This document shows positions 9,303-32,687 of a DNA stretch of 58,993 nt, piece after piece. The notes beneath the pieces are model-generated. The model did no database searches, was not told the origin of the DNA, and saw only the letters and a list, made by a program, of their open reading frames with translations. Each line of letters opens with the position of its first letter. Positions within the stretch are counted from its first letter, which is position 1. Location of the stretch: assembly GCA_016209715.1 (NCBI GenBank), contig JACQVP010000014.1, forward strand, positions 1 to 58,993, in the 5' to 3' direction. This DNA comes from Candidatus Omnitrophota bacterium. Lineage in GTDB: Bacteria > Omnitrophota > Omnitrophia > Omnitrophales > Omnitrophaceae. Made by a program: the position numbers and the translations under genes.

Positions 9303-10506
9303 AAAACGGCTCCTCCACTTTCGTGCTCACGATCTTGCGGCCGTCCCGGTCGAAGCCGTTGATGGTGTCGTCGTAGAGCGCGAAGGGTTTCCCCTGGATT
9401 TCGGTCTCATAAATTTTCGGGCCGGGCTCGATCTGGTACCGGAAAATGATCTGATTCGTCTTCCGGAACATCTGCAGGACGGCCAGAAGCTCGCGATCGG
9501 GGTTCCGATAGGCCTCGATGGCATGGTCCACGCCGGGGCCGAACATTTGCTTCAGGAAGTCGCGGGAGACCCAGCGCGGCGGAATGTAATAGCCGTTGGG
9601 CTCGGTGCCGAACTGAGGATAGAGCGGCAGCGCGACCTTGGCCACTTTGACCAGATAATAAATGGGATTGTAACGGTCCTCGGCCCATTGCCCATCGGAA
9701 GCGATCTGGACCAGCCCCTGGAGCCGGATCTGTCCGATGCAGGCGGCCATGCAGCGCGTTTCCATGGGCCGGCCCTGGGTCTCCGGGTCCTTCCCTTCGA
9801 TCCGGGGATAACAGCCGATGCACTTTTCCGTCACCCGCGTGCTGGGCCGGTACATGGCTTTTTTATACGGGCAGGCCTCCACGCATTTGCGATAGCCGCG
9901 GCAGCGCGATTGGTCCACCAGCACGATGCCGTCTTCCGGCCGTTTGTAGATGGCGTTCCGCGGACAGGCAGCCAGGCAGGCCGGATAGGTGCAATGATTG
10001 CAAAGGCGAGCGAGATAAAAGAACCAGGTCTTGTGCTCCGGTAAACTCGTGCCGTCGTCGACGTAGGAGCCTTCTTTCCCCTTCGGGCCCACGGCCGTGT
10101 CTTCATAGATATTCGGAAACCGCCATTCTTCGTCCGTCGGGAGGTATCCCAAGACTCGCTGGGGCTCGGCGCCGGCCTTGGTTTTCGCCGCCTCGAAAAT
10201 CGTCTTCCCGTCGAAGACGTCCCCTTTCCATTTTTGGGCGCCGGGATTGGTTTCCTCGAGCAGTTTCAGGAGCTTGACGTCCCAGAACTGCGGATAACCG
10301 CCGTAGGGTTTCGTCTCCACATTGTTCCACCACATGTATTCCTGCCCCTTGGAGAACGTCCAGGTGGATTTGCAAGCCATGGTGCAAGTTTGACAGCCGA
10401 TGCACCGGTTCAGATTGAAGACAAAGGCGAATTGACGGTCGGGATGATGCTCCTCGTGGGGGTATTCCATCTTCCGGTTGATCTGCCAATTGAAGACCTG
10501 GCTCAT
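9268..10506 (-). CDS. Type II DMSO-reductase beta (NxrB/NarH-like) Fe-S subunit
   Basis: Four Cys groups: CIGCQTCTMAC, CNHCTYPACLAACP, CRGYRKCVEACP and CIGCYPR...CMAAC. The start is trimmed to the ATG at 10506 (MSQVFNWQINR), which overlaps the upstream stop. Confidence 0.9.
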   Translation of the reverse strand: MSQVFNWQINRKMEYPHEEHHPDRQFAFVFNLNRCIGCQTCTMACKSTWTFSKGQEYMWWNNVETKPYGGYPQFWDVKLLKLLEETNPGAQKWKGDVFDGKTIFEAAKTKAGAEPQRVLGYLPTDEEWRFPNIYEDTAVGPKGKEGSYVDDGTSLPEHKTWFFYLARLCNHCTYPACLAACPRNAIYKRPEDGIVLVDQSRCRGYRKCVEACPYKKAMYRPSTRVTEKCIGCYPRIEGKDPETQGRPMETRCMAACIGQIRLQGLVQIASDGQWAEDRYNPIYYLVKVAKVALPLYPQFGTEPNGYYIPPRWVSRDFLKQMFGPGVDHAIEAYRNPDRELLAVLQMFRKTNQIIFRYQIEPGPKIYETEIQGKPFALYDDTINGFDRDGRKIVSTKVEEPFYVRPDIHQNSI

Positions 10507-10772
10507 GACGCCCTTCTCCCCCGCCATTTGGCCCCGGCCTCTTCGATGACCGAGCGCACAAACGCGTCTCCTTTTTGCTTCCACACCCGGTACGGGCCGA
10601 CGTAAAGCGGGTTCCGGAACAGATTCAAAAGGGCGTCCTCCCCCCAGCCGTCACGCGCGAATTCCTCCGCGAAACAAAGCGCCATGTCGCGCACTTCCGC
10701 CTCCGACTGCGCAGGCAGTTCGATCCCCACCATTTCCATCGGGTCTTCCGGGTCCATTTCGTGTTTCGGCAT
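10503..10772 (-). CDS. Hypothetical 89-aa acidic protein between the alpha and beta genes
   Basis: ATG at 10772 preceded by AGGAGG. Its stop overlaps the beta start (ATGA). Sequence begins MPKHEMDPEDPMEMVGIELP...; no family recognised. Confidence 0.5.
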   Translation of the reverse strand: MPKHEMDPEDPMEMVGIELPAQSEAEVRDMALCFAEEFARDGWGEDALLNLFRNPLYVGPYRVWKQKGDAFVRSVIEEAGAKWRGRRAS

Positions 10773-10780
10773 GTTGCCTC

Positions 10781-13700
10781 CTACCCCTTGAAATAACCGC
10801 CGCTCAAATACTGTTTCATGACTTCGCTCTCGTTGGCGGGCGTGAATCCCGTAGTGGCCGGGGCCCACACGCCCTTGCCGTCCAGGCCGCCGTCCTCGGC
10901 CTTGGTCACGCGCACCAGAGTTTCCTTCGGCACGGTGTTGACCGCATGGTTGTCCGCCTCGCCGCCAAAGATGAAGGACATGAACACCTTGGCCTTGTGG
11001 AACAACGTGTCCGTCTGGTGCATCGGCATGTGCCAATTTCGCGTCACGCTTTGCTGGGAGCCGTACCGGAAATTGGCCTGATAGGCGCCGCCTTCCGACA
11101 ACGCGCGCTTGTCCGGCCGCGACTCGTGCGCCTTCACCGATTTTTCCGTGGCGATATAAGTTCCGTGTTTCATCATCACCACGTTATAAGGAAAGGCCGG
11201 GTTGAATTTGACGCGCAACATCAGGCGCGCGACTTTGTAAAATGGATCGTCGGGCCGGGCGCCGACATAGGGCCGGTCCGCCGGGTTGGCGTCCACGTAG
11301 ACGTAATCGCCGTCGTTGATGCCGAGCTCCTTGGCCGCCTGAGGGTTCATGTGCACCTGCTGTTCGCCGACTCCCGGGGTGCGCTTGTCCATGCGGTAAG
11401 GATCGCCGAAGTTGGAGTCCCAAATCTGGTGCCAGTCCACATTGCTCCAGAGCGAATGGACCCGGTGCCGGCTCTTCGGCGTGAGACAGTAGAAGCGAAA
11501 CCCTTTTTCCCACAGGAAATTCTGCGTCTGCTTCACCTCCGCCCAAGGCATCCGGATGTTGCGCACGGAGCGGTCGTCCCAATGTTCCGCCGCGGGCGCG
11601 ATGCCGTAATCATTGGGCCGGACGTAGGGATTGGAGCTCACGATGACGTTGGGCAGATACGGCGTGGCCTCGGGCCCTTCCCGGTGCACGATGAAATTCT
11701 CTCCGTATTCGATGGCCTCGGCCACGTCGGTGTAGGCGTGGAGACGCCCGGTGTCGGTGTGGAACGGCTCTCCCGCGTGCACCTGCTCCCAGAAGGGGAC
11801 GCGCGGATAGGTCCGGAAGAGCATCAGGGCCCCGCCCGGAGGACCGTATTTTCCGCTCATGATGTCCGGGAGCTTGTAGCCTGCGGTGGTGGTGGAGGTT
11901 TCCAGCAGGCGCTGGATATAGACCTCCCGGTTTCCCTCCAGCGCGAATTTCCAGTAATCGCGGAAGCGTGCGTCTCCGGTCAGTTCCCCGAGCTTTTCGG
12001 CGATCCCGGCCAGGATCATGATGTCGTCCCGGCTGTCGAACACCGGCGGGATCCCTCCCTTCCAAATCTGCAGAAAAGGATTGGAGCAGGAGGCGGTGAC
12101 CTCCAGCCCCTCGAATTCCAGCCAGCTGTTGGCGGGAAGCGCCAGGTCCGCGTATTCGATCGAGGCCGTCATCTGGATGTCGATGGAGACGATCATTTCC
12201 ACGTTGGGATTGACGTTCTTCAGCATCTCGTAGGCGTGCTTGGCGTTGTTCAGCAAGTTCACGTTGGTGAACATCATCACTTTGGTAGGGCTCGGCATGT
12301 GCGTGGCGCCGGTGAACACTTTGCGGCCGTCCTTCGGCGTGTCCACGATGAGCGGCCGGTCCCCGTGGTTCCAGTAGGCCGGCTCCTCGTCTTTGAAATA
12401 AACTTTGGCGTGCACGTCTTTGCCCGGCGCGGCCGGATCGAGGTTCGGATGGAACGGGTCTTCACCCACCCAGCCTTTGAACCCGTACCCGGTCCAGGGC
12501 GAACCCTGGAACAGGGCCGCTTTATAATTTCCGGCCCAGGTGTGGCAGCCCGAACCCGGCTTGCCGATGTTGCCCGTGAGCATGAGCGGCAGGTAGGCCG
12601 CGCGGTTCATTTCCGTGGCGTGGAAGTAATGATTGATCCCCTCGCCCTGGTGGATGGCCGCCGGCTTGATCGTCGCCAGGTCCTTGGCCAATTGCTCGAT
12701 CATCTCCCTCGGCGCCCGGGTCATTTCCACCACCGAGTCGAGGTCGTAATCCCGGAGATGGATCCGGTAAAGCGAGAAGAGGGTCATCACTTCGATTTCC
12801 CGCCCGTCCACAGTGCGGACTTTAAACGTCCCTTCCAGGGCCGGCCGGATATTTTTCCGGGCCAGCGCCGGACCGAGATCGTCGCGGGTGAGCGCGGCCG
12901 GCTGATTCCCGGCCTCGTCCCAGATCACGAAGTCGCCGATCTTGGCGTATTGTTCGTCCGTCAATCCCTGGTACTTGAAACTCGGCCCGTCTTTTTTGAG
13001 GCCCGGCCGGTAATCGGCGAAGATTTCGGCGGCGCGCAGGCGGCGCAGGTTGTCGGTCCTCACCAATAGGGGGAAATCCGTGAACTGGAGGACAAAATCT
13101 TTGTCGTACCAGCCGTTGTCCACCATGAGGCGCGTGATGCCCAGGAAGAGCGCCGTGTCCGAGGCGGGACGGATCGGGATCCAGTAATCCGACTTCGTCG
13201 CCGGGGGACTGTATTCGGGCGTGATGGTGACCAGTTTCGCCCCGCGCTCCATGCATTCGATGAACCAATGACTGTCCGTGAGCTTGTTCTCGACTAGGTT
13301 CTTCCCGTCCTGGATGATCAGCTTGCTCGACCGCAAGTCGTTGAAATCGCAATCCGAAGCCTGCAGGCCGTGGACCCAGGGATGCCCGGGGGCCTGGTCG
13401 CCGTGCCAGGTGTAGTTGGACCAAATCCTGCCGGCCTTGGCTTGATCGGGCCCGACGCCTCTCAAATGAGCGTCGAGAAGGGCCATGGTGTTCGACAACC
13501 GGTACATCCCGTATTTTCCGAAGACACCGAGCAGGCCCATCCCGCCGCGCATCTTGATCGTCCGGACCCCCGCGCCTTCCATCGGCGCGAGCATTTCTTC
13601 CGGATATCCCTCGGCCAGGAGTTTTTTCTTTCCTTCCTCTCCGCTGTACCGTTTGCCGACGGCCATCAGGCCTTTGGCGACGTAGCCCAGCGCCTGATCC

Positions 13701-20526: not shown

Positions 20527-21336
20527 TTAAGAATAAGCGTGGAGAGAAGCCAGCCAGAAATTGACGCCGAAATAGGTAAACATCACCAGAAAGAAACCGA
20601 AAAACGCGAGCACGGCAAAGCCCCGGCCGGATCCGTTTTCCATCGACCGCACATGATGAAGGGCCCCATACAAGGCCCAGGTGATGAAGGCCCAGGTTTC
20701 CTTGGGATCCCAGTTCCAATAGCGACCCCAGGAAGCGTTGGCCCAGACAGCGCCGGTGGAAATGCCCAGCGTCAAAAAAGCGAATCCGACCGCGATGAGC
20801 CTCGCCATCAGTCGGTCCAAATACTCCAGCCGGCCTTCGATCTCGCCGCGTTTTTCCGGCCGGGAGACAAATTTCCTCGCCGCGTCCAGGAATAAATAGA
20901 TGCCGGCCGTGCCGAATGCCACGGCAAAAGAGGCGTAGCCGAGGATGGCCGCCGTAACATGGAAGAGCAGCCAATTGCTTTTCAAGGCCGGCAGAAGGGG
21001 CTCAATATCGGATGACAAGAGCGAGCACAATCCGAGCAGGACGGCGGCCGTCAGACCGGCGAACCCCCCTACGGAAAGCGCCCGGAATTTCGGGAAGGTG
21101 GTCCAGTAAATGGCCATCATGAGAAAACCGAGCAAAATCAGGGTTTCGTAAGTATTGGACCATGGGAGATGGCCCGCCTGGACCCCGCGGATGGCGATCA
21201 CGGAGCCGTGAAAAGCAAGCAGCCCGAGACCCATCGAGATTGCGGACCAAAACCAAATCCTCCCTCCGGAAACGGCTGCGGAAAAGGATACCAGGGCAAA
21301 GAGAAGATAACATAACATCAAAATGCCGATGATCAT
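20527..21336 (-). CDS. ccsA: Cytochrome c biogenesis (System II) haem-handling protein
   Basis: WGRYWNWDPKETWAFITW tryptophan-rich haem motif and polytopic sequence. The start is trimmed to the ATG at 21336 (an ATGA overlap). Confidence 0.85.
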   Translation of the reverse strand: MIIGILMLCYLLFALVSFSAAVSGGRIWFWSAISMGLGLLAFHGSVIAIRGVQAGHLPWSNTYETLILLGFLMMAIYWTTFPKFRALSVGGFAGLTAAVLLGLCSLLSSDIEPLLPALKSNWLLFHVTAAILGYASFAVAFGTAGIYLFLDAARKFVSRPEKRGEIEGRLEYLDRLMARLIAVGFAFLTLGISTGAVWANASWGRYWNWDPKETWAFITWALYGALHHVRSMENGSGRGFAVLAFFGFFLVMFTYFGVNFWLASLHAYS

Positions 21337-22637
21337 CTCACACCGCCCCCCTTCACAACCGGTTCCAGTTCCCTCAGTATGATCCCGGCTTCGTATTTCA
21401 AGCCCGCGGGATCTTTGACGCAGGCGCCTGAACATTCATAGGAGCTCTCTTCCCCGCGCCGCTCGGGAACAAAAGAAATCCGTATGCCCCGCGGGATGAC
21501 AAAGGCACTCAGAAAGGCACCCAGGATCATGACCACAAAGCCCGCATAGGCAAGCGGCCAGCCCGGATCATAGCTCACTTTCATCCCGGAAGAGTAAATC
21601 TTCCGGATCCTCCCGATGGCAAAGGCCCATTCTGCGGGACCAGCGCCCTGATGCAAAAATAGATCGGAGAATACCCAAATCTGCTTCTCGGGGGTATCGG
21701 GCGAGGTGGAAGTATACAAAAACAAGGAGACCGCGGGATTGCGGAAATAGGGAGAACGGCTCGCCGCTTTTCCGCCTTGAACGATGACAAAATCCGGAAC
21801 GATCTCACCCGCCTCGACCGTGTAAGGCAGCCCCGCGAGTCCTGATTTTTTACCCGGCGCGAGGGTGATTTCACCGAAGGGTTTGCCGTTTTTATAGACC
21901 CGGAGAACTACCTCCCGGATCTTCACGCTGTAACGCATCTGAAAAACCCGCACTCCCCCTATCTGCAGGGGGCCGTTCACACTCAAGTCATGGTGCTCGA
22001 TCCGTCCCTTCCGGTCCTGAACCAGTAAACGGCTCACGTAAGACGCGACATTGCCCGTCGCGTCCAGCATCACGCTGAATTTCTCCAATTTGATTTTGGC
22101 ACCTCCCCGCGCAAGCAAGGTCGTGGCGCCTTCTTGCAATTCGATGTCCCGGACGTCCGCGAACGAATAAGTCAAAAGCCCCGCGAGAAGGGCAACCACC
22201 AGTCCAGCATGGACCAGGAAACTGCCCCAAATGCCGTCCAAATCCTTAACGCCGGTAAAAGAGAACCGCAATTTCTCCATTTTCGCGATCACGCGGTATC
22301 TCTTCGACCTCAGGACCGATGAAATCCGATCCTGATACTCCTGCAGATCTGAAAATGGGATCCTGGCGGGTCGGAAATCTTGAAGGCGCGTCTCCCGCCC
22401 CGCGGTGGTAATCTCATCCGCGGCCGCCATCCGGAACAAATCGATCCCCTTGCGGACTGTGTGCGACACCGCGAAGACTCCCAGGAGTCCCAAAAAAGCG
22501 ACAAACGGCTTCGCCGCAAACAGGGCACTGGGATTTTTCAAAAAAGGGAGGGTACTTTCAGGAATGGTGCCGAACGCGGCCGCGGCGCAGATCAAAACGA
22601 TCAAAACATTGACAAAGCGCAGAATAGAAGTAGTCAC
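21333..22637 (-). CDS. ccsB: Cytochrome c biogenesis protein ResB/CcsB
   Basis: N-terminal TM helices, a large soluble domain, a C-terminal TM and translational coupling to ccsA. GTG start. Confidence 0.7.
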   Translation of the reverse strand: MTTSILRFVNVLIVLICAAAAFGTIPESTLPFLKNPSALFAAKPFVAFLGLLGVFAVSHTVRKGIDLFRMAAADEITTAGRETRLQDFRPARIPFSDLQEYQDRISSVLRSKRYRVIAKMEKLRFSFTGVKDLDGIWGSFLVHAGLVVALLAGLLTYSFADVRDIELQEGATTLLARGGAKIKLEKFSVMLDATGNVASYVSRLLVQDRKGRIEHHDLSVNGPLQIGGVRVFQMRYSVKIREVVLRVYKNGKPFGEITLAPGKKSGLAGLPYTVEAGEIVPDFVIVQGGKAASRSPYFRNPAVSLFLYTSTSPDTPEKQIWVFSDLFLHQGAGPAEWAFAIGRIRKIYSSGMKVSYDPGWPLAYAGFVVMILGAFLSAFVIPRGIRISFVPERRGEESSYECSGACVKDPAGLKYEAGIILRELEPVVKGGGVR

Positions 22638-22666: not shown

Positions 22667-24817
22667 TTATTCAAACGCTTTCTTAAATCCGACGGTCACG
22701 CCCTGGCCAAAATACTCGTCGTTGTAACCGCTGAAACCTCGGCCGTCGTAGAATTTGAATATCTGGTAGCGGGCCTCGAAGGAGCAGGTCTTGCTGATAT
22801 CGTACTGGATCCCCGCGGTCACCTCATTCATGGTGTTCCGATTATCGCCGAGGGAATCCGTCAATTGATACCCCGTGGACAGCACGCTCTTCTTGGTCAG
22901 ACGATAATTCAGATTGGAAACCAGATAATATACGTCTCCGTTAAAATCGTAAGCGCCTGTGCCGCCCGACCAATTGCTCCTTCCGGTAGCGTCCGTCGGC
23001 GTATCCACGCGGTAATAATCGTACATTCCGGCGAAATACCCGAATAAATTCCGGATCACCGGTCCCGAGAAAGCCATCGAAAAGCGATCCCGGTCCAAAT
23101 TCTGCTGCTGATCTCCGACTTTGGGAAATTCAATATTGTCCATGATCCATTGGTATTTCAAGGTCGAGATCCACGCCGCCGGCAGTTTCACGTCTAAGTT
23201 CGCAGTGATTTCCTGCACCATCCGCTCCTGATCGCCCAGATAACCGGGATAATATCGAGGCAACGTGTCCGACCGGGTGTTGTACTGACGCTCTCTCTGC
23301 TGCCATTTGTACTGCAGATTCGCCTTCATCCTCGAATTCAACCTCTGGGCTATCTTCACTTTCGGCACGTAGTCCAGATAAGTGACATTGGTTTCATAAC
23401 TCAGTTCGGGCGCTCCGGATCCCCAACCCGCATCCGTGAAGATTTCATGATTGCGCGCGTCAAATGTTTCTTTCCAATTCAAACGCCGCTGCTCGAGATC
23501 AATGCCCGCGTAAGCGGTAGTCCCTTGACGCCGGTACGTGACCGACAACGCTTCCCCAAACCAGCCTTCGCTCAAATTGGTATCGGAGGACCGGAGGTTA
23601 TTGATCCCGCCCGCGATCAACGTGCCATGATTGTCCGTCACGGCATGCTCGCCGCGAAATCCGAACCGCATATCGAGACCCTTCCGCCGCAGAAAATCCA
23701 GCATGGCGCTTCCCGCGCTCACGGTATTGCTGACCCTCCAGTTGTCGACATCCGGGCTCCAATAAATATTGGGATTGGCCAGATTCGGCCGGACCTCGCT
23801 GCGGACACTGTCATTCCGGAGAAAATTGAAGAAATAGCCCCCGTGCACGTAAACATCGTCGGACCAGAAGCTGTCGTACTTCGTTTGGAGTTTGATATCG
23901 TGAAATTGGTAGCGGTCGATATAGTCGCGCTTCTGAGCAAGGACTCCATTCGTGTATCTCGTCGAATCGGTAAACTGGCCGTCTTGATAGGCTTCATATG
24001 AAATCAGCGGCTCAATATTGTGTTTCTCGGCAACCTTCATCGGAAGACTGAGAGTGAATTTGTTGCTCACTCCATCCACCTGCCGTCTCATTGAAATAGA
24101 GCGCAGAGACGGCAATCCCGTGCGCGTGGCCACGTCCCCCTTGAGCAGGGTCTCCCTGCCTTCGCGAGTCCATAAGCCGTATTTAAAAATCAGTTTTGAT
24201 GTTTCCGATACCGGATACCCCAATTCCACATCGACATTTCCGCGGTCCGTATAAAGATCCTCGTCCGTCCAATCTCCGAACTCATCTGGCAGACGATACT
24301 GAGATGGATCCCACGGCTTGTCTTCCGTGCCATTCCAATATTTTCTAAACCGCTTCCATCTTGCATCCAGATAATAACCGCCCTCTTTTGAAACGCGCAT
24401 GTCAGCCAAATAGCTGTAATTGACGAGGGCCTTCCCCTTGAACTCCGTGGTGATGTCGCCGGAAGCATCCTTAAAATACAAGCCCCTTACCCCGCCCGTC
24501 GTCTGGTCATCCGTATACCAGTCTTCCCGAAACCGGCCTCTATCGCCTTTCACGTAGTAATGAGTGATCGAAGGTGCGACCACAAAAAGATCCGGGCTCG
24601 CCCCCGGAAAATCACCGAAGTATTTCTCCTTTAGATTCTGTGTCGCCTGCGCGGAACTCGGAGCAGCATTTTGCGCAGAAGGCTGCGGCTGGCTTTCTGT
24701 TATTTCTTTGGTCTCGGAAATCGCAATCTCGTCGGCATTAGCATTCAAGGAGGCGAAACACAAAATCCCGACCGTCAGGAGAACCGCCCCAAAGCCACCG
24801 CGGAGATGGATTCTCAT
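22667..24817 (-). CDS. Outer-membrane beta-barrel protein (MtrB/PioB-like porin of a porin-cytochrome pair)
   Basis: Signal peptide ending SLNANA-DE and 716 aa with alternating aromatic/polar strands (YxY, FxF) throughout. The start overlaps the stop of the cytochrome gene (ATGA). Confidence 0.65.
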   Translation of the reverse strand: MRIHLRGGFGAVLLTVGILCFASLNANADEIAISETKEITESQPQPSAQNAAPSSAQATQNLKEKYFGDFPGASPDLFVVAPSITHYYVKGDRGRFREDWYTDDQTTGGVRGLYFKDASGDITTEFKGKALVNYSYLADMRVSKEGGYYLDARWKRFRKYWNGTEDKPWDPSQYRLPDEFGDWTDEDLYTDRGNVDVELGYPVSETSKLIFKYGLWTREGRETLLKGDVATRTGLPSLRSISMRRQVDGVSNKFTLSLPMKVAEKHNIEPLISYEAYQDGQFTDSTRYTNGVLAQKRDYIDRYQFHDIKLQTKYDSFWSDDVYVHGGYFFNFLRNDSVRSEVRPNLANPNIYWSPDVDNWRVSNTVSAGSAMLDFLRRKGLDMRFGFRGEHAVTDNHGTLIAGGINNLRSSDTNLSEGWFGEALSVTYRRQGTTAYAGIDLEQRRLNWKETFDARNHEIFTDAGWGSGAPELSYETNVTYLDYVPKVKIAQRLNSRMKANLQYKWQQRERQYNTRSDTLPRYYPGYLGDQERMVQEITANLDVKLPAAWISTLKYQWIMDNIEFPKVGDQQQNLDRDRFSMAFSGPVIRNLFGYFAGMYDYYRVDTPTDATGRSNWSGGTGAYDFNGDVYYLVSNLNYRLTKKSVLSTGYQLTDSLGDNRNTMNEVTAGIQYDISKTCSFEARYQIFKFYDGRGFSGYNDEYFGQGVTVGFKKAFE

Positions 24818-25590
24818 CGGTTGAATGTCCTCCAGGTATTGGATCCATGCGGTGAACGGTGATGATCCACGCAGTTTTCACCGGGGCCAATGAAGTAATT
24901 TCCGCCGCCCGCGCCGTGCGGCACGCCGCCGATATTACCAGCCTGATTATTGGTATTGGGCTCCCAGTGGCATCGCAGACAGAGCGCATTGTCGTCCGCG
25001 ACGAGCAATTTTGCATAAACGCCGCCGTGGGGTTCATGGCAAACCTGACAGCCGTCCCGCATCGCGTCGTGCTCGAAGACAAACGGCCCTTTGTATTCCT
25101 TATGGCATTTAAAGCATTTTTCGCTGGATCGTTCCAAATCGGTGACGGAATGTGATGCCCGGTCGGCGTTATGCATGCCATGGCAGTCCATGCACGCCAT
25201 TTGCCCTTCCGTCACGGGATGATGAAATTGAAGTTGAAACTGAGCCTTTTTGTCCAGATGGCAGGCGAAACAACGCTCCGTATCATAGCGTATGATCTTT
25301 GTTTTATCTCCGCTGCCGTCCACATGCAGACTTCCGGGACCGTGGCAGGATTCACAGGCCTCCCCGGTGATTTTCTCTCCCTCTTCTAAACTAGTCCCGA
25401 AATGGGATTCCAAGCGGTGCCGCTTCACGACGTCCTCATGGCAAGCGGCGCAGGTTTCCATTCCGACGTATTCGGCCCCCGGTATCGTATGCTGCTCAAG
25501 AGCATTGCGGATTTCTTCATAGTCCCGGCAGGAGGAAATATAAAATGCTGTGAGTGCAAAAATTGGGAGCAACAGGTAACGAAGTTTCAT
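24814..25590 (-). CDS. Heptahaem c-type cytochrome lipoprotein
   Basis: Lipobox FYISSC. Seven CXXCH motifs (CAACH, CESCH, CFACH, CMDCH, CFKCH, CQVCH, CLRCH) with paired CXXCH-x-PH spacing, plus a terminal CVDHH. Confidence 0.85.
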   Translation of the reverse strand: MKLRYLLLPIFALTAFYISSCRDYEEIRNALEQHTIPGAEYVGMETCAACHEDVVKRHRLESHFGTSLEEGEKITGEACESCHGPGSLHVDGSGDKTKIIRYDTERCFACHLDKKAQFQLQFHHPVTEGQMACMDCHGMHNADRASHSVTDLERSSEKCFKCHKEYKGPFVFEHDAMRDGCQVCHEPHGGVYAKLLVADDNALCLRCHWEPNTNNQAGNIGGVPHGAGGGNYFIGPGENCVDHHRSPHGSNTWRTFNR

Positions 25591-25605: not shown

Positions 25606-25621
25606 GGCCAGAATCGTGCCA
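25606..25621 (-). promoter_or_regulatory. Sigma54 (-24/-12) promoter TGGCACGATTCTGGCC
   Basis: The minus strand reads GTTGGCACGATTCTGGCCTA. TGGCACG is perfect, the GG-N10-GC spacing is correct, and it lies about 15-30 nt upstream of the cytochrome ATG in the 48-nt gap after the NtrC-type regulator gene. Confidence 0.6.
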
Positions 25622-25638: not shown

Positions 25639-27096
25639 TTACTGTTCAGAGTTCTGAGATTGGGTGTTTTGGCTCAAGTCGGCTGGATCTTCCGTGTCAT
25701 TCAACCCATATTTTCCCATTTTATACCGCAAAGCGTCCCGGCCAATGCCCAGCATGCGTGCGGCCTTGGACTGATTCCCCGATGCCGCTTCCAGCGTCTG
25801 GATCACAAGCTGTTTTTCGATTTCATCCAGCGGAACGGACAAGAGACAGGTGGGCAATTTATTGGAGGGCTTGCCGGAAGACGGCGCGCTTCCTTCCGAC
25901 TTGTAATCCTTCAGCACACAGCCGCAATCGATCTCCGCCGGAAGATGATGGGTCCGGATGAGGGTTTCTTCATTCAGGATCATCGCCCTTTCGATGATGT
26001 TTTTGAGCTCCCTCACGTTCCCGGGCCATTTATAATTCAGGAGCATTTCCAGCGCGTCCGGCGCGATGCCGGAAATCGATTTTTTGAATTCCCGGTTGAA
26101 GTGGGCAAGGAAATAGCCCGCTAATGCCGGGATGTCCTCTTTCCGCTCACGCAGCGGATGAAGATAAATAGGCACGACGTTCAGCCGATAGTAAAGGTCT
26201 TCCCGAAAGCGCCCCTCCCGGACTTCCACCTTCACGTCTTTGTTCGTCGCCGCGAGGATCCTCACGTCGGCCTCAAGTTCCTTGACCCCGCCGATCTTGC
26301 GGAATTTTTTCTGATCGATGAGATGGAGAAGTTTTGCCTGGAGCTCCTTCGGCATATCGCCGATCTCGTCCAGGAAAAGGGTTCCTCCCTGCGCTTCTTC
26401 AACCAGCCCTTTTTTAGACTGACGCGCGTCCGTGAAAGCGCCCTTTTCATACCCAAACAATTCGCTCTCGAGAAGGGTCGCCGGAAGCGCGGCGCAATTC
26501 ACGGCGATGAAGGGACGCGCCGCCCGGCGGCCCCCATAATGGATCACACGGGCGAGCAGGTCCTTGCCCGTGCCGCTGGCGCCCTCGAGAAGCACGGTGG
26601 ACGCCTCCGAAAGACATATCTGCCTCACCAAATCGAGCACCCGTTTCATGAAAACACTTTCGGCTACGATATTGGACCAATCATATTTTCCACGTTCGAT
26701 GGACTCCCACTCATGGATCTTTTTCCGCAATTTCCTTCTCTCAATCGCTTTTTCGATATTGAGCTTGAGTTCGTCAAATTGAAACGGCTTGTGCAGATAA
26801 GTGAACGCCCCTGCCTGCATGCATTCGACCGCGCTCCGGATGTCATCATTCGCGGTGATGACCAGGACGGAGACCAAAGGATCCCGCTTCATCATTTCCA
26901 TCAGAACATCCTTCCCGTTTCCGTCCGGGAGGCGCAAGTCCAGGATGACCACGTCGACCACGTCCTCTTCAAAGAGCCGCAATCCCGCGCCGGCCTTCGT
27001 GGCCGTAGCGACTTCATACCCTTCGCGCGTCAAATCTTTTTCCAACGACCAGCAAATCAATTTTTCATCATCCACGATCAATATTTTGGCCTTCAT
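25639..27096 (-). CDS. Sigma54-dependent response regulator (REC + AAA+ + Fis-type HTH)
   Basis: ILIVDDE...DLRLPDG receiver, GASGTGKD Walker A, GAFTDA sigma54-contact loop and a C-terminal QSKAARMLGIGRDALRYKM HTH. Confidence 0.9.
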   Translation of the reverse strand: MKAKILIVDDEKLICWSLEKDLTREGYEVATATKAGAGLRLFEEDVVDVVILDLRLPDGNGKDVLMEMMKRDPLVSVLVITANDDIRSAVECMQAGAFTYLHKPFQFDELKLNIEKAIERRKLRKKIHEWESIERGKYDWSNIVAESVFMKRVLDLVRQICLSEASTVLLEGASGTGKDLLARVIHYGGRRAARPFIAVNCAALPATLLESELFGYEKGAFTDARQSKKGLVEEAQGGTLFLDEIGDMPKELQAKLLHLIDQKKFRKIGGVKELEADVRILAATNKDVKVEVREGRFREDLYYRLNVVPIYLHPLRERKEDIPALAGYFLAHFNREFKKSISGIAPDALEMLLNYKWPGNVRELKNIIERAMILNEETLIRTHHLPAEIDCGCVLKDYKSEGSAPSSGKPSNKLPTCLLSVPLDEIEKQLVIQTLEAASGNQSKAARMLGIGRDALRYKMGKYGLNDTEDPADLSQNTQSQNSEQ

Positions 27097-28634
27097 CCCA
27101 TCCTCCCCGCCTCCACAGAGGCCTCGTCCACCGCAGACTCCGCCGCGGCCGGCAAAATGATGCTTAAAATCGTTCCCTTCCCGGGAAGGCTTCGTGCCCG
27201 GATCGAGCCGTGGTGGGCCTCGATGATCCCCTTGGAAACCGACAGCCCCAATCCTGTTCCGTCCGCGCGCGTAGTGAAAAAAGGTTCAAAGATGGAGGCC
27301 AAGACGTCTGCGTCCATTCCCAAGCCGGTGTCCTCCACTTCGGTGAGAACTCCGTCCGGGACGGGCTCGATGCGAACGCTCAAAACGCCGCCTTCCGGCA
27401 TGGCGTTTGCGGAATTTAAGAACAAGTTCAGAAAGACCTGCTCCAACTGCCCTTCGTCCCCGCACACGGCCAATCCCGGGGATTTCGCCGTCACCTGAAA
27501 GCGGATGTTCCGCGACCTGAGAAAATGCTCCGCCAAATGAAATGCCTGCTGGACCGGGTCGGCGAGCGGGCACCGATCAAAAGAGGGCGGCTTTTGCCGC
27601 GCGTACCTCAAAAGATTATGAAGGGTCTTTTCGATGCGCCCAACCTGCATGATGAGCTCCGTAAAAATTTCGGGGTCCTGCCCGGGCTGAAGCTCGCTCT
27701 TGAGCGCATGGAGCGTCGAACTCATCGCGGCCAGCGGATTTTTAATTTCATGCGAAATATTGGAAATGAATTGCCCGAGAGAAGCCAGACGGTTTGAATG
27801 TGCAAGTTCGCGGCGGTGCTGTTCGGCAATTTTCTGCTGGGCCCGGCGAAAGCCGCGGATCATGGCGTTGAAGCTTTCTGAAAGGCGTTTCAAATCCGCA
27901 TCGCCCCGGATAGAAATCTTGGCATCGAGTTGCCCGCGCTGCGCTTTCTCCATCTCCGATATCAGCTGCCGAATGGGTTTGCGCACAATGGTCCGGACGA
28001 CCCACCGGATGAGGACCGCACTCAGCAGGATGATGCCGCCCGCGGCGATAATCATGAAGAGCCGGTTTTCGGCGAAGCGTTTGAAGATCGGCGCCAGGGA
28101 GACGTGAAGCTCGATCCCTCCCAACGCGGCCCCGGGGACAACGTCATGGCAGCGCATGCAGGCGGCCCGGCTGTGCACGGGATGCACGATCCGGAGGGTC
28201 CCCTTCGCACCCTTCTCCTGGAAGTGGATCACGCCTTGGTCGCGCGTAAAACGGTCCGCATCGGTCGTCGTCAAATCGACTGCCTGGTCGATTTTACGAG
28301 GGACCGTTGAAAAACGAATAATCCCTTTCGCATTGAAGATGTTGATCTCCGCGAGACCCAGACGATCTTTTTCGCTCCCGATCACCTGCTGCAATTGTGC
28401 CGGGTCGAACGTTTCGTTCATCATGGTCTCGATCAGCTTTCCCTTAAGGTACTGCGCCTGGTAGAGGGACGTCGTCACCAGCGTTTCGGCGATCCGCTTG
28501 GAAGCCCCTTTCATCAAAGCGAAGGCGCCGATCCCCACGATGAGACACACCACGGCGCCGACGGTCAGGACGAGTTTCACGGTCAGGGATTGAAACAGGA
28601 TCCTTTCCAAAAAGCCGGCCCTCCTAGTTCCCAT
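27093..28634 (-). CDS. Sensor histidine kinase with a periplasmic CXXCH (haem c) domain, HAMP, HisKA and HATPase
   Basis: Two TMs flank an approximately 150-aa loop containing CMRCH. H-box NISHEIKNPL; N/G boxes LNSANAM and DTGLGM...GTGLGLS. Confidence 0.85.
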   Translation of the reverse strand: MGTRRAGFLERILFQSLTVKLVLTVGAVVCLIVGIGAFALMKGASKRIAETLVTTSLYQAQYLKGKLIETMMNETFDPAQLQQVIGSEKDRLGLAEINIFNAKGIIRFSTVPRKIDQAVDLTTTDADRFTRDQGVIHFQEKGAKGTLRIVHPVHSRAACMRCHDVVPGAALGGIELHVSLAPIFKRFAENRLFMIIAAGGIILLSAVLIRWVVRTIVRKPIRQLISEMEKAQRGQLDAKISIRGDADLKRLSESFNAMIRGFRRAQQKIAEQHRRELAHSNRLASLGQFISNISHEIKNPLAAMSSTLHALKSELQPGQDPEIFTELIMQVGRIEKTLHNLLRYARQKPPSFDRCPLADPVQQAFHLAEHFLRSRNIRFQVTAKSPGLAVCGDEGQLEQVFLNLFLNSANAMPEGGVLSVRIEPVPDGVLTEVEDTGLGMDADVLASIFEPFFTTRADGTGLGLSVSKGIIEAHHGSIRARSLPGKGTILSIILPAAAESAVDEASVEAGRMG

Positions 28635-30531
28635 TTTCGCCGTGCCCTTCCGGGGACTTTCCCGTGAACATGCTCCAATTCATGGGGTAATTTTCGGGGT
28701 CGAACATCGCAAAATAAAAATGCCAGATCACGATGGCCAGCGTCGCCAGCACGGCTTCGTAAAAATGGACGATGGTCGCGACGTCGAGCGCCCATTTGGG
28801 GAAATACCGCATCGCGAAATTCTCATAGACCAGCATCAGCCCGGTGACGGCCATGACCACGGAGCCCCAGACCAGCGCCCAGTATTCGAGCTTTTCCACG
28901 TAGTTGTATCGCGCCAAGACGGGTTTCTCCGGCGTCAGGCCGAGATTGTGCTTCTGCATGCGCCAGAAATCGGAGAAATCCTTCGCCGCGGGGAGCAGCG
29001 CCCGGAACTGGCCGCGCCCGCGTTTGGTGAAAGCGAGGTAGCCCAGGTGGAAGGCGCCCACGGCCATGAACAACTTGGCCGCCAGGCGGTGCACGATCCC
29101 GCGCCAATCGGCCTGCGTCCCGAAGAAGGTGAAAGGCGCGGCCCACCAGGCGTCCGGATATTTGAGGGCGAAACCGGAATAGGCGAGCAGGATGAAAGAA
29201 ACGGCCAGGAGCAGGTGCTGGATCCGCTCGCTCAGCGTGAACCGGGTGTGCCGCCCTTTTTGCTTGGCCCGGGCGTAATGCTCGCGGAGTTTGCGCGCGA
29301 AATCAAGGGCGTTGTGCACGATCATCCCCCCGATCACCAGCAGAATGAGCCAGACATAAAAGACCCCCACGAAGTAGACCACCTGATCGCGGAGACTGGA
29401 AGGCGCGATGTGGATCGAGCCCTTGGCCAATTGATCGCTCACGTTCGGGTGGCAGCGCCCGCAGGTTTGGGGAAGGTTTTTCTTGTTGACCGAAGAGGCC
29501 GGGTCGCTCGAAGGCAGGATGTCGTGGGCGCCGTGACAGCTGGCGCAATTCGCCACCGTGGTGCGCCCGAACTTGCTCGCCAGCCCGTGATAACTTTCCA
29601 GATAAGTTTTCACCCGGTCGGCGGGCAGGCGGTATTTGGTGACGACCTTCTCGGCGGCATGGCAGTGGCCGCAGGTCTTTTCGGACACCGCGGTGGTGTA
29701 GACCGTCGAGGCCGGGTCTTTGTGCGAAAGGATGTTGTGCTCGCCGTGGCAATCGGTGCAGACGGGCACTTCCATCTTGCCCGCCAGGGCGGCGCGGCCG
29801 TGGATGCTCCGCTCGTAAGTCCGCAGCACGTTCTCGTGGCACTTGCCGCAGGTGCCGGGCACGTGCTTTTTGAAAATTTTCGATTCGGGATTGGTCGGCG
29901 CGTGCAGGTCGTGCGAACCGTGGCAATCGTTGCAGACGGCCGCGGAAAGGTTCTTCTTCTCCAAGAGCGCCTTGCCGTGCACCGTGTCGGCGTACGAATG
30001 AAGGGGTTGTTTCTCCAGCAGGGAATACCTCGCCATCATCTTCTCGTTCTCGTGGCAGACGGCGCAGGTCTGCGGGATGTTCAACCGGTGGATCGGGGAA
30101 AGGGGATCCCGCGCGCTGCGAATGGTGTGTGTGTCGCCGTGGCAATTGAGACAGCTCGCCGCGGGGACCCCGCTCTTGAGCGCCTTGCCGTGGTCGGAGG
30201 CGCCGTAAATCTCGGCCTCGACGCGGTGGCAGACCGCGCAATCGACCTGTTTCAGGCTTTCCGGGTGGGGCAATTCTTTGATGTCGCTGTGGCAGGAAGT
30301 GCACAAATTGCTCCCGTGCGCGGTGGTCTCGAAATCCTCGAGCTTGAACGTGTCGTGGCAGGCGAGGCAGTCTTCGTTGGCGATGGTTTCAGCCGCTGCC
30401 GGCTCGTCCAGCGGCGCGGGGGCAGGTTCCTCGGCGCAAGCCAGCGCCGCCCAGAGGCAGATCGCGAGCGCGATCAGGATCAGGACGAGATCCAGCTTTA
30501 CGCGATTTCCCCCGAATGGCAATCGAAACAA
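28624..30531 (-). CDS. CbcL-like fusion: periplasmic 11-haem cytochrome c plus a 5-TM b-type cytochrome (FdnI/HydC-like) domain
   Basis: Signal peptide, 11 CXXCH motifs, then His-bearing TM helices (IQHLLLAVSF, IVHRLAAKLF, VATIVHFYEAV). TTG start at 30531 or 30522. Confidence 0.8.
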   Translation of the reverse strand: MFRLPFGGNRVKLDLVLILIALAICLWAALACAEEPAPAPLDEPAAAETIANEDCLACHDTFKLEDFETTAHGSNLCTSCHSDIKELPHPESLKQVDCAVCHRVEAEIYGASDHGKALKSGVPAASCLNCHGDTHTIRSARDPLSPIHRLNIPQTCAVCHENEKMMARYSLLEKQPLHSYADTVHGKALLEKKNLSAAVCNDCHGSHDLHAPTNPESKIFKKHVPGTCGKCHENVLRTYERSIHGRAALAGKMEVPVCTDCHGEHNILSHKDPASTVYTTAVSEKTCGHCHAAEKVVTKYRLPADRVKTYLESYHGLASKFGRTTVANCASCHGAHDILPSSDPASSVNKKNLPQTCGRCHPNVSDQLAKGSIHIAPSSLRDQVVYFVGVFYVWLILLVIGGMIVHNALDFARKLREHYARAKQKGRHTRFTLSERIQHLLLAVSFILLAYSGFALKYPDAWWAAPFTFFGTQADWRGIVHRLAAKLFMAVGAFHLGYLAFTKRGRGQFRALLPAAKDFSDFWRMQKHNLGLTPEKPVLARYNYVEKLEYWALVWGSVVMAVTGLMLVYENFAMRYFPKWALDVATIVHFYEAVLATLAIVIWHFYFAMFDPENYPMNWSMFTGKSPEGHGENGN

Positions 30532-32009
30532 TTCATCTCCTTCCAGGCTTCGCCCACGTCTTCATCGGGATGCTTGAACTCGAGCCCACCCGTGTTGCTT
30601 TCGATCGCCCCCGGCTTTCCCTGCTCCATGATGATGTGGCAGGAGTTGCAATCGTTGGTGAGGATCTCGCCTCCCGCGGTTTTATGTTTGTTGTCGTGGC
30701 ACCGGAAACATCCCGGCGCGTCTTTGTGCCCGATGTTCTCCGGATAGGCCTTCCAGGAAACCTTCATCTCGGGGAAAAAGTTGCTTTTGTAAATCTTGAC
30801 CACGGTGTTAACGCTCCTGGCTAAACTGTCCTTTTTCTCCTTCAGCACCGCGGGGTACTCCGATTCATAAAAGGCCTTCAACGATTCCCGGATCCCGGCC
30901 GCGGCTTCCTTCTCGCTGGCGTATTCGCCGACCAGGGCCTTCACCGCCTCCCGCTTTATATAAGGAAGCTCGCGGTCAATCTCCCCCACCGAAAGGGCTT
31001 CGTTGACCGCGTCCACCGGCGTCCGGAAATTGTGGCTGGGCCGGTTGTGGCAGTCCATGCAATCCATGCGCCGTATCTCGCCCGGGGGCGGCGAAGCCGC
31101 GGAAAACCCCGATTCTTCGTCCACGTAGACACGCTCCTTCCCTTCCGGGTCGATGATTTTGACCCAGGGGATCACGTGGCGCTCTTCGTCGGTGGCGATG
31201 TAATAAACTTTATTTTTGATGTTCATGTGCCAATGGATGCCCTCTTTTTTGCCGAACTTGCGGGTCCCCCCGCCCACGAACAGGAGCATCCGCGTGCGCC
31301 ATTCAGTGTTGGCCTCATCGGGCAGGAAATACTGCTTGTCCTGTTCCACGGCGCCGAAAAACTGCTGCGGCCAATGGCACCGCTCGCAAGTCTCCTGTGC
31401 CGGACGCAGGTGTTTGATGGGCGTTTCAATAGGCTTGGAATATTTTTTCATGACCACCGAATACACCTGGTAGGCCCCTGAAAATTTGGAGCGGACATAC
31501 CACGCCGCGCCCGGCCCGATGTGACATTCCACGCATTTGACCCGCGCGTGCGGCGAATTGTGATAGGCGGTAAATTCCGGCTTCATCACCTCGTGGCAAA
31601 CGCGGCCGCAGAACGTTTGCGACTCCGTGAATTCGTAAGAACGAAACAGGCCAAACACGGTGAAAAGCCCGAACAGGGTGGTCACCCCGATCGTGGTGAA
31701 GGCCCATTTTTGATGGGTCGGATTGTTGAAGTCGATCGCGGGAAAGCGCCGGACGGTGCCGTGTTTGAGCCGCGCGGCCCGCTCCCGAAGGGCCCCCACG
31801 GGGATCAGGATCAAACTCAAGGTCAAGAAGGCCGGCGCCAGAAAATAAGTGATAATCCCGATGTAAGGATTGATCTCCTTCGACCAGATGTCCAGGAAGG
31901 ACAGGAACAGGATCACCGTGAAGAAGATGACGGACAGTATCCCCCCGATGACGCTGATCCAATTCTGGAAATAGGAGTCCTTTTTATTCGGGTTATTCGG
32001 GTCCATCAT
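30498..32009 (-). CDS. ImcH-like inner-membrane multihaem cytochrome (NapC/NirT-related)
   Basis: Three N-terminal TM helices; CGRVCH (CX3CH) plus six CXXCH motifs (CVECH, CERCH, CMDCH, CFRCH, CNSCH, CFDCH). ATG at 32009 behind AGAGGGA; the track start at 32012 is a TTG. Confidence 0.7.
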   Translation of the reverse strand: MMDPNNPNKKDSYFQNWISVIGGILSVIFFTVILFLSFLDIWSKEINPYIGIITYFLAPAFLTLSLILIPVGALRERAARLKHGTVRRFPAIDFNNPTHQKWAFTTIGVTTLFGLFTVFGLFRSYEFTESQTFCGRVCHEVMKPEFTAYHNSPHARVKCVECHIGPGAAWYVRSKFSGAYQVYSVVMKKYSKPIETPIKHLRPAQETCERCHWPQQFFGAVEQDKQYFLPDEANTEWRTRMLLFVGGGTRKFGKKEGIHWHMNIKNKVYYIATDEERHVIPWVKIIDPEGKERVYVDEESGFSAASPPPGEIRRMDCMDCHNRPSHNFRTPVDAVNEALSVGEIDRELPYIKREAVKALVGEYASEKEAAAGIRESLKAFYESEYPAVLKEKKDSLARSVNTVVKIYKSNFFPEMKVSWKAYPENIGHKDAPGCFRCHDNKHKTAGGEILTNDCNSCHIIMEQGKPGAIESNTGGLEFKHPDEDVGEAWKEMNCFDCHSGEIA

Positions 32010-32031
32010 CAAAGTCCCTCTTAGCTGTGCA

Positions 32032-32156: not shown

Positions 32157-32687
32157 TTATTTATTTGGAACCGGGTGCTTAATCTTCTCCCACCGTTCCG
32201 CAAAATTGAACGGCCTGAAATTCGGGTTTTCTTCGTTATGGCATTTCACGCAAGTCGCTTCGGTGGGAATCTCCATTCCCGCCTTCATCGCCGCGTCCCG
32301 ATTTTCCATAATGCTCTTCTTGGCATAGTCTTTCCCCGCACCGTGGCAAGACTCGCAGGAAACGCCTTCCTCGACCGGCACTTTTTGTGTAACTTTTTGC
32401 TCTGTAAGACCATACGCTGTCGCATGGCATTTCAAGCATTTGCCGCTCGTCGTGGGATCTTCAATTCCCAGCTTGGCTGCGGTTTCCTTGGCAGCCGGTG
32501 TCGTAAGTGTTTGGTAGGCTTTGGAATGTGCGGATTCCTGCCAAATCCTCAGCTGTTCGCCCTGTTCCGGTTTCTTGTGGCACATTGAACACATCTTCAC
32601 CCCTGTGTATTCATGAGCGGCCAGTGCCGCGTCCAAGGGGGCCAGCAGATTCACTGCCAAAAACATCATGATCCATTTCTTCATCAC
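32157..32687 (-). CDS. Periplasmic tetrahaem c-type cytochrome
   Basis: Signal peptide ending LDAALA-AH and four CXXCH motifs (CSMCH, CLKCH, CESCH, CVKCH). The track start is a GTG at 32687; the first ATG is at 32684. Confidence 0.85.
   Translation of the reverse strand: MMKKWIMMFLAVNLLAPLDAALAAHEYTGVKMCSMCHKKPEQGEQLRIWQESAHSKAYQTLTTPAAKETAAKLGIEDPTTSGKCLKCHATAYGLTEQKVTQKVPVEEGVSCESCHGAGKDYAKKSIMENRDAAMKAGMEIPTEATCVKCHNEENPNFRPFNFAERWEKIKHPVPNK

Follow-up and report, generated by a model that had tools for sequence, protein, structure and literature searches.

The Gene Pair and Its Locus

A stretch of DNA of 58,993 nucleotides from a Candidatus Omnitrophota bacterium (assembly GCA_016209715.1, contig JACQVP010000014.1; the whole stretch is hereafter called the window) carries a gene for a multihaem cytochrome c, overlapping that of a large outer-membrane β-barrel protein and followed by the genes of the cytochrome c synthase subunits ResB and CcsA. 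A first-pass annotation made from the sequence alone had described the first two as a minimal porin-cytochrome pair, composed of a heptahaem lipoprotein translationally coupled to a barrel of 716 amino acids (aa). The analysis reported here drew on homology, fold, gene order, motif conservation, and co-variation. The assembly holding the window is 1.37 Mb in size and 69% complete, and genome-wide absences given below are limited accordingly. The features at the centre of the argument are as follows.

24814..25590, minus strand: MtrA-like multihaem cytochrome, 258 aa, with seven CXXCH motifs and one CxDHH (match to MtrA, 6r2q_A, E 2.5e-25)
25528..25539, minus strand: lipobox I-S-S-C, residues 18-21, with Cys21 as the predicted lipidated N-terminus (sequence motif)
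24859..24873, minus strand: variant eighth haem site C240-V-D-H-H244, codons tgc gtg gat cat cac, standing opposite the tenth CXXCH of MtrA in the alignment
22667..24817, minus strand: MtrB/PioB-like 26-strand outer-membrane barrel of 716 aa that has a signal peptide and, at residues ~29-75, a disordered segment (AlphaFold2 and Foldseek)
21333..22637, minus strand: ResB/CcsB, System II cytochrome c synthase subunit (PF05140, E 4.7e-30)
20527..21435, minus strand: CcsA, System II synthase subunit (TIGR03144, 214 bits, above cut-off), its true start probably near 21336

The stop codon of the cytochrome overlaps the start codon of the barrel as cgATGAgaa (...F N R stop / M R I H), so that the barrel, like those of the MtrB_PioB family, is encoded beside an MtrA-type cytochrome. 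The ATGA overlap described by the first-pass annotation is thereby confirmed, as are the 258-aa length, the ISSC lipobox, and the seven CXXCH motifs of the cytochrome and the position of ccsB and ccsA after the barrel.

The family to which this cytochrome of ~260 aa belongs yielded 749 matches in the protein collection, and relatives were found in 240 species-representative genomes labelled Omnitrophota, Planctomycetota, Verrucomicrobiota, Chlamydiota, Elusimicrobiota, and others. Among 79 related loci, each from a different species, about 50 have an open reading frame (ORF) of 600-760 aa immediately after the cytochrome gene, and the loci keeping this arrangement carry all five of the named phylum labels; the conserved unit is the pair rather than the single cytochrome gene. 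The closest relative found, Candidatus Omnitrophus fodinae SCGC AAA011-A17, has a cytochrome of 80% identity and the same gene order as the window, namely CbcL-kinase-regulator-cytochrome-barrel-ResB-CcsA. Two metagenome-assembled genomes of Chlamydiota (L023 and L027, labelled Chlamydiae/Chlamydiales) hold family cytochromes of the CxDCH type, that of L023 being directly followed by a 753-aa barrel; provided that the binning is correct, the occurrence is a surprise for this phylum.

A Shortened Relative of MtrA

The cytochrome contains exactly seven CXXCH motifs (CAACH, CESCH, CFACH, CMDCH, CFKCH, CQVCH, and CLRCH), and its residues 103-251 match residues 179-324 of MtrA (PDB 6R2Q_A) with an E value of 2.5e-25, sites 3-8 of the cytochrome aligning with haems 5-10 of MtrA. 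The family alignment displays seven invariant CXXCH motifs and an eighth site near the C-terminus, which gives the family an octahaem plan with two sites fewer than MtrA. The eighth site occurs in three forms: CxxCH, CX4CH (the commonest, including that of the Verrucomicrobiota), and CxDHH. In the cytochrome tree, clade 1 comprises the CxDHH proteins with some CxxCH proteins, and clade 2 the CX4CH proteins with a few CxxCH proteins.

A second MtrAB-like pair is present in the window genome (contig C68, 8793-14147, of which locus L084 covers 8793-12227), directly downstream of nrfH and nrfA. Its cytochrome of 273 aa has a plain signal peptide and a CX4CH-type eighth site (CFSAGCH), and its barrel comprises at least 681 aa. 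The NrfA encoded there has CLHCH as its first haem motif and no CXXCK. In Omnitrophica RIFCSPLOWO2_12_FULL_50_11 (L042, 362-5932), a barrel of the window type (48% identical), ResB, and CcsA are followed by a CX4CH-type cytochrome, placing two pair types side by side.

Membership of a curated decahaem family does not follow from this relationship. The cytochrome scored 148.2 bits on TIGR03508 (DmsE/MtrA decahaem), below the cut-off of 192.2, and the two cytochrome copies of its genome scored 123-143 bits when that genome was searched by itself; its best NCBIfam match, NF041028 (the GSU2203 decahaem family of Geobacter), likewise stayed at 170 bits, below a cut-off of 325. Being sub-threshold on both models, the cytochrome is a relative of each and a member of neither, and in place of the ten CXXCH motifs of the DmsE/MtrA family it has seven together with one CxDHH.

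A surface cytochrome of the MtrC/OmcA type was not found among the eight multihaem ORFs, the only ones detected in this 69%-complete genome, and its absence is thus unproven; the 258-aa cytochrome itself scored only 15 bits on TIGR03507. No second outer cytochrome is encoded in the window cluster. One protein seen elsewhere in the genome (contig C79, 4415-7243) is membrane-anchored, 942 aa in length, and combines a long coiled coil with eight CXXCH motifs, of which several fall within class-I cytochrome c-like domains.

An MtrB-Like Barrel

The signal peptide of the 716-aa protein ends …ASLNANA/DE, and an AlphaFold2 (AF2) model built with 15 homologues is all-beta with 26 strands, at a mean predicted local distance difference test (pLDDT) score of 72.7 and mostly 80-97 in the strands, which agrees with the β-barrel anticipated by the first-pass annotation. 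When the model was searched against solved structures using Foldseek, the top match was MtrB (6r2q_B) with template-modelling (TM) scores of 0.60/0.66, and all other matches were 22-strand TonB-type receptors with TM scores of no more than 0.42. In the search of the genome with PF11854 (MtrB_PioB), the barrel scored 21.8 bits over model positions 1-146, just short of the gathering threshold of 23, and an Omnitrophota homologue 52% identical to it (P0012) passed at 28.9 bits. PF11854 matched six of the 44 barrels adjoining family cytochromes at E values up to 0.01 (best 7.9e-9) and is the only Pfam family to recur among them, none other appearing as often. Taken together, the modelled structure and these matches support a 26-strand MtrB-like fold. 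Elsewhere in the genome (contig C111, 6416-6625, locus L085), a further outer-membrane barrel may be encoded by an open frame of 477 aa, which the C-terminal part of the MtrB_PioB model hits at 22.9 bits.

Two sequence-based results count against the assignment besides the sub-threshold PF11854 score, by which the barrel falls outside that family. No Pfam family was matched above threshold by hmmscan of the window barrel, and barrel sequence profiles compared with PDB sequences did not retrieve MtrB, the 15-row profile returning nothing and the 44-row profile missing MtrB. Given this failure, the barrel is very divergent, and its link to MtrB rests on fold, weak Pfam matches, and gene partnership. 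On the side of the cytochrome, the scores below the two curated cut-offs also speak against membership of the Mtr family, and AF2 applied to the cytochrome alone (28-row alignment) gave an unusable model with a pLDDT of 44.

A barrel so poorly recognised by sequence might instead be a nutrient porin or transporter standing beside a periplasmic, lipid-anchored cytochrome, with no conduit formed. The missing Pfam match, a faint TonB-receptor match of 17.8 bits, and the many TonB-dependent receptors in the Foldseek list all lend themselves to this explanation, which we nevertheless regard as very improbable: the barrel has no plug domain, its model has 26 strands rather than 22, its TM scores to TonB receptors do not exceed 0.42 as opposed to 0.60/0.66 for MtrB, and its partnership with an MtrA homologue is strict across phyla. 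The identities of nutrient porin, TonB receptor, and usher were rejected; the homology to nutrient porins or ushers that would have overturned the first-pass annotation did not appear, the sole match of 17.8 bits facing a cut-off of 800.

The two genes are thus very probably an electron conduit across the outer membrane of the MtrAB/PioAB type, in which the 258-aa cytochrome would thread the 26-strand barrel as a chain of closely packed haems. This upholds the function proposed by the first-pass annotation, in which porin and cytochrome together carry electrons across the outer membrane. Of its further suggestion of a reduced or different design, the reduction stands, with eight sites in place of ten and no MtrC/OmcA-like protein found; the difference in design does not, the module being a divergent member of the MtrAB/PioAB group.

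The Eighth Haem Site

The first-pass annotation overlooked the eighth site, C240-V-D-H-H244, which lies where relatives have CxDCH. In MtrA, the aligned haem 10 lies at the extracellular end of the wire in the 6R2Q structure, beside MtrC. Of the 120 closest homologues, 67 carry C[VIL]DHH, in most cases with Arg and the C-terminal tail NIWRTFNR after it. A histidine ~15 residues upstream (in GGVPHG) and the following xHGS are kept in all 67 CxDHH proteins; these two histidines are presumed from conservation to be axial ligands of the last haems, and their retention suggests that the eighth site may still be occupied by haem. The count of seven haems, accurate for the CXXCH motifs, is on this ground probably an undercount, the eighth site being altered and not deleted.

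How such a haem would be bound is less evident. A single thioether to Cys240 would be the simplest form of this unusual attachment. We propose tentatively, at somewhat less than an even chance, that CxDHH is a new c-type attachment site, with either a single thioether or a cysteine thioether plus a His-vinyl bond, located at the cell-surface end of the conduit and served by its own clade of ResB/CcsA. Published single-cysteine variants of the CXXAH type are reportedly poor substrates for haem attachment, which tells against such a site.

The contrary explanation is a true heptahaem, whose CxDHH has lost its haem and now either caps the mouth of the barrel structurally or offers a Cys/His metal site there, and whose adjacent ResB and CcsA are passengers providing general maturation, retained for co-expression or as part of a self-sufficient mobile cassette. 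It is in keeping with the literature searched, which yielded no relevant paper on CXXHH as a haem-binding motif, and it fares less well with the presumed axial histidines, whose conservation in 67 of 67 CxDHH proteins would be unexpected after haem loss. We give it a real but minority chance.

The Adjacent ResB and CcsA Genes

Counting only loci with enough flanking DNA, ResB and/or CcsA adjoin the pair in 11 of 11 CxDHH loci, the window included, as opposed to none of nine CxxCH loci, where nothing was detected even at E values up to 1. The first-pass annotation had treated ccsB and ccsA as mere neighbours; in this analysis they became the part of greatest interest. Within clade 1 of the cytochrome tree, at least two switches between the HH and CH forms of the motif have occurred (monophyly of HH was rejected, with an approximately unbiased test p-AU of 0.02), and in both independent contrasts the adjacency accompanies HH and is absent with CH. 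That close CxDCH relatives have no adjacent ResB/CcsA in either contrast counts against the genes being passengers of a heptahaem. In a tree of 45 CcsA domains, 10 of the 11 copies adjacent to CxDHH cytochromes form one clade with 97/97 support, bearing four phylum labels, and none of the other CcsAs from the same CxDHH genomes falls inside it. All six CxDHH genomes examined possess further CcsA-family genes, beside which a further general system would be redundant; this is at odds with a general maturation role for the adjacent copy.

In the window genome, a second System II set is located on contig C112 (1-3826, locus L125), comprising a Bcp-like peroxiredoxin, ResB (an open frame of ~580 aa), and a long-form CcsA truncated by the contig end, the last of which groups in the tree with copies near CX4CH-type pairs of other genomes.

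The precedent for a synthase devoted to one substrate is provided by Wolinella succinogenes, in which NrfI and CcsA1 are dedicated to CXXCK and CX15CH, respectively, while CcsA2 handles CXXCH, and in which NrfI is encoded in the operon of its own substrate NrfA (PMC12285233). The window shares the layout of NrfI and CcsA1, in that a CcsBA-type synthase adjoins a cytochrome with a non-standard motif and a second, general synthase is encoded elsewhere in the genome. It differs in having separate ResB and CcsA proteins as opposed to a fusion, in a motif (CxxHH) that has no second cysteine and for which no precedent was found, and in that specificity was established by genetics in Wolinella and is here inferred. 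By this analogy, the adjacent ResB/CcsA pair would be a dedicated haem lyase specialised for the CxDHH site.

Several observations weigh against this proposal and, in part, for the heptahaem. The co-variation rests on two independent contrasts only, rendering a sign test powerless (p 0.5), and one CxDHH-adjacent CcsA (that of L016) stands outside the clade. The window CcsA retains a canonical WWD motif (WGRYWNWDPKE), and the CxDHH-linked clade has only two clade-specific positions and no convincing active-site signature; the occurrence of the cassette under several phylum labels would also fit horizontal spread as a unit. Genomes lacking CxDHH often have two or three CcsA-family genes. Copy number proved a weak test of a dedicated lyase, the ranges of 2-4 per CxDHH genome and 1-3 per CxxCH genome overlapping. 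With both sides considered, an eighth site holding a haem installed by a specialised synthase is a possibility to which we accord rather less than even probability.

A cysteine two residues before a conserved periplasmic histidine (xCLHx) was observed in 9 of the 11 CxDHH-linked copies and in none of 26 other CcsAs. The window copy has alanine at this position (residues ~240-250; window ~20690-20720), and the cysteine was set aside as an active-site signature.

The Lipid Anchor

A bacterial lipoprotein was recognised by the pattern [LVI][ASTVI][GAS]C after the hydrophobic region of the signal peptide, together with a signal peptidase II in the genome. The cytochrome N-terminus reads MKLRYLLLPIFALTAFYISS followed by C, giving the lipobox I-S-S-C21, and LspA is encoded on contig C76 (PF01252, 129.8 bits); a search of the 69%-complete genome did not recover LolA. 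Using a loose pattern, a lipobox was present in 32 of 61 CxDHH, 32 of 42 CxxCH, and 7 of 8 CX4CH proteins. The window cytochrome and those of the nearest Omnitrophota relatives have it, whereas plain signal peptides are found in other close relatives. The lipid anchor highlighted by the first-pass annotation is therefore genuine as a lipobox but is no defining trait, roughly half to three quarters of the family possessing one, and it seems to be an optional aid rather than the foundation of a novel design.

MtrA has its N-terminus on the periplasmic side, and in the window cytochrome Cys21 stands ~25 residues before the first haem motif. By analogy with MtrA, the N-terminus is thus most simply taken to be tethered, probably, to the outer membrane's inner leaflet where the barrel has its periplasmic rim, and the C-terminal end would lie at the cell surface. 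If no MtrC-like surface cytochrome exists, direct contact with the external substrate would fall to the outermost cofactor.

Regulation and Electron Supply

Upstream of the pair lies an island of genes which, from the c554-like cytochrome to CcsA, are all on the minus strand of the window.

25606..25621, minus strand: sigma-54 type -24/-12 element TGGCACGATTCTGGCC, starting 31 nucleotides before the cytochrome ATG
25639..27096, minus strand: NtrC-type sigma-54-dependent response regulator (Response_reg, Sigma54_activat, and HTH_8 domains)
27093..28634, minus strand: sensor histidine kinase (HAMP, HisKA, and HATPase_c domains) with CMRCH in a periplasmic loop (~28146-28160)
28624..30531, minus strand: CbcL-like inner-membrane cytochrome with 11 CXXCH motifs and a cytochrome b (Ni_hydr_CYTB) domain (domain and motif match)
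30498..32012, minus strand: ImcH-like inner-membrane cytochrome, 504 aa, with three transmembrane helices, CX3CH (CGRVCH), and six CXXCH motifs (architecture)
32157..32687, minus strand: candidate periplasmic shuttle, a soluble c554-family cytochrome with four haems (PF13435, E 9.6e-20; PDB 1bvb, E 1.8e-11)

Elements of the form TGGCAY-N5-(T/A)TG(A/C) just upstream of the cytochrome ATG were found in six loci including the window, the others being L004 (~5127-5142), L005, L020, L021, and L025, in each of which the NtrC-type regulator gene is kept upstream of the element and the cytochrome. Scans for sigma-70 promoter and terminator consensus sequences across the island returned no more than chance. 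The operon would on this evidence be read from the sigma-54 promoter upon activation by the NtrC-type regulator. The element is so near the start codon that the 5' leader would be very short. Counting against such a promoter, a search for rpoN (PF04552) in the 69%-complete genome was negative. Nine homologues, ranging from Omnitrophota to Verrucomicrobiota, share the CxxCH of the kinase, and this suggests that the kinase may be a redox sensor controlling the conduit operon by means of a covalently bound haem.

The architecture of ImcH described in PMC6295460 is that of the 504-aa protein, whose CX3CH motif sits beside transmembrane helix three, and the CbcL/MtoC/MtrH architecture described in the same work matches the protein with 11 CXXCH motifs. 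Zhong and Shi (2018) reported no mtrAB or mtoAB adjacent to imcH (PMC6295460); in the window, 5 kb separate an imcH-like gene from the mtrAB-like pair, both being on one strand, and ImcH-like genes are near family pairs in about 30 of 79 loci. The other neighbour types of the island also recur around family pairs in many loci, and taken as a whole the island looks like a route under regulation, leading from the quinol pool out to the cell surface.

Direction of Electron Flow

Electrons would most likely be drawn from the quinol pool by the ImcH-like and CbcL-like inner-membrane cytochromes, pass through the c554-like periplasmic cytochrome to the conduit, and leave the cell for Fe(III), Mn(IV), or humic acceptors. 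Export is favoured by the ImcH homologues, which are known to date from Fe(III) reducers alone and are interpreted as quinol oxidases (PMC6295460).

An inward conduit has also been considered, in which electrons from extracellular Fe(II), minerals, or a partner cell would, as in PioAB and MtoAB, feed periplasmic nitrite or nitrate reduction or the quinone pool. No MtrC-like surface cytochrome was found, which is the layout of PioAB and MtoAB (PMC6344600), and since this two-gene layout is known from Fe(II) oxidisers, it speaks against a firm assignment to export and allows flow in either direction. The paralogous pair on contig C68, directly downstream of nrfHA, joins with this layout in keeping electron uptake possible, and cytochromes of the CbcL/MtoC type occur in both reducers and oxidisers (PMC6295460). 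Set against these points are the ImcH homologue itself and the location of imcH, cbcL, and the pair on one island, one strand, and under one set of regulators, and we judge inward flow to be the less likely direction.

Comparison with Known Conduits

The nearest characterised counterpart is the Shewanella MtrCAB core (PDB 6R2Q), with which the window shares a homologous cytochrome whose last six sites correspond to MtrA haems 5-10, a 26-strand barrel, and the adjacent order of cytochrome then barrel. It departs from Shewanella MtrAB in having eight sites as opposed to ten, a lipobox in place of a plain signal peptide, a last site of CxDHH, a barrel barely recognisable by sequence, no MtrC partner found, and maturation genes of System II (ResB/CcsA) in the same operon as opposed to Ccm. 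Shewanella MtrB has an N-terminal CXXC, which the window barrel does not possess.

PioAB of Rhodopseudomonas palustris and MtoAB of Sideroxydans and Gallionella resemble the window more closely in layout, being two-gene systems of the MtrAB type with no surface decahaem and with a linked inner-membrane cytochrome of the CbcL/MtoC type. Their cytochromes are decahaem, soluble, and involved in Fe(II) oxidation, whereas the window has a shorter cytochrome, a variant last site, and an ImcH-like quinol oxidase in its gene set. The OmaB-OmbB-OmcB and Ext clusters of Geobacter also combine an octahaem cytochrome on the periplasmic side, a porin-like barrel, and lipoprotein cytochromes; these porin-cytochrome (Pcc) proteins are reported to be non-homologous to Mtr (PMC6344600) and employ a separate outer lipoprotein cytochrome, whereas the MtrA homologue of the window is the only cytochrome of its module.

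A 2026 bioRxiv preprint (10.64898/2026.05.27.727921) describes clusters of an MtrA-like cytochrome and a porin, named "EET3/EET4", in Verrucomicrobiota including Palsa-1439 and SPRUCE genomes, expressed in peat. The available part of the preprint covers Acidobacteriota and Verrucomicrobiota and makes no mention there of Omnitrophota, CxDHH, or a linked ResB/CcsA. Palsa-1439 and SPRUCE Verrucomicrobiota loci are among the relatives of the window cytochrome, and EET3/EET4, likened here by the accessible description and by taxon labels, is probably the CX4CH branch of the same cytochrome-barrel family. The conduit module of the window belongs to the MtrAB/PioAB kind and is well conserved, in a shortened form with eight sites that escapes the curated models; its novel part is apparently the variant outermost site together with the seemingly dedicated ResB/CcsA.

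Significance for the Omnitrophota and Their Relatives

The Omnitrophota and their relatives in the Planctomycetes-Verrucomicrobia-Chlamydiae (PVC) group are abundant in groundwater, sediments, and peat, and to our knowledge no member of the Omnitrophota, nor any PVC relative of that group, has been cultured. Given the occurrence of the cytochrome, usually followed by a barrel gene, in 240 species-level genomes, electron exchange with minerals or humic substances would be a common trait among these bacteria, whose genomes are small. Our literature search returned no paper joining Omnitrophota with a porin-cytochrome. Seymour et al. (2023) reported that FeGenie flagged "metal-reducing cytochromes" in 10 of 23 Omnitrophia species (PMC10066038), with no mention in the accessible portion of that article of CxDHH or a linked synthase, and the conduit family would account for the cytochromes flagged there. 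As TIGR03508 and PF11854 both miss the family, surveys of iron cycling undercount such conduits.

With eight sites and no MtrC, the pair would represent a natural minimal Mtr system, showing how short a haem wire across the outer membrane can be. At the working tip of the wire, the association of CxDHH with ResB/CcsA offers an example, open to direct testing, of haem attachment with a new specificity. If it is true, CxDHH would become the fourth substrate class of dedicated System II lyases after CXXCH, CXXCK, and CX15CH, and the conduit would be equipped with a specially tuned terminal haem where the external substrate is met.

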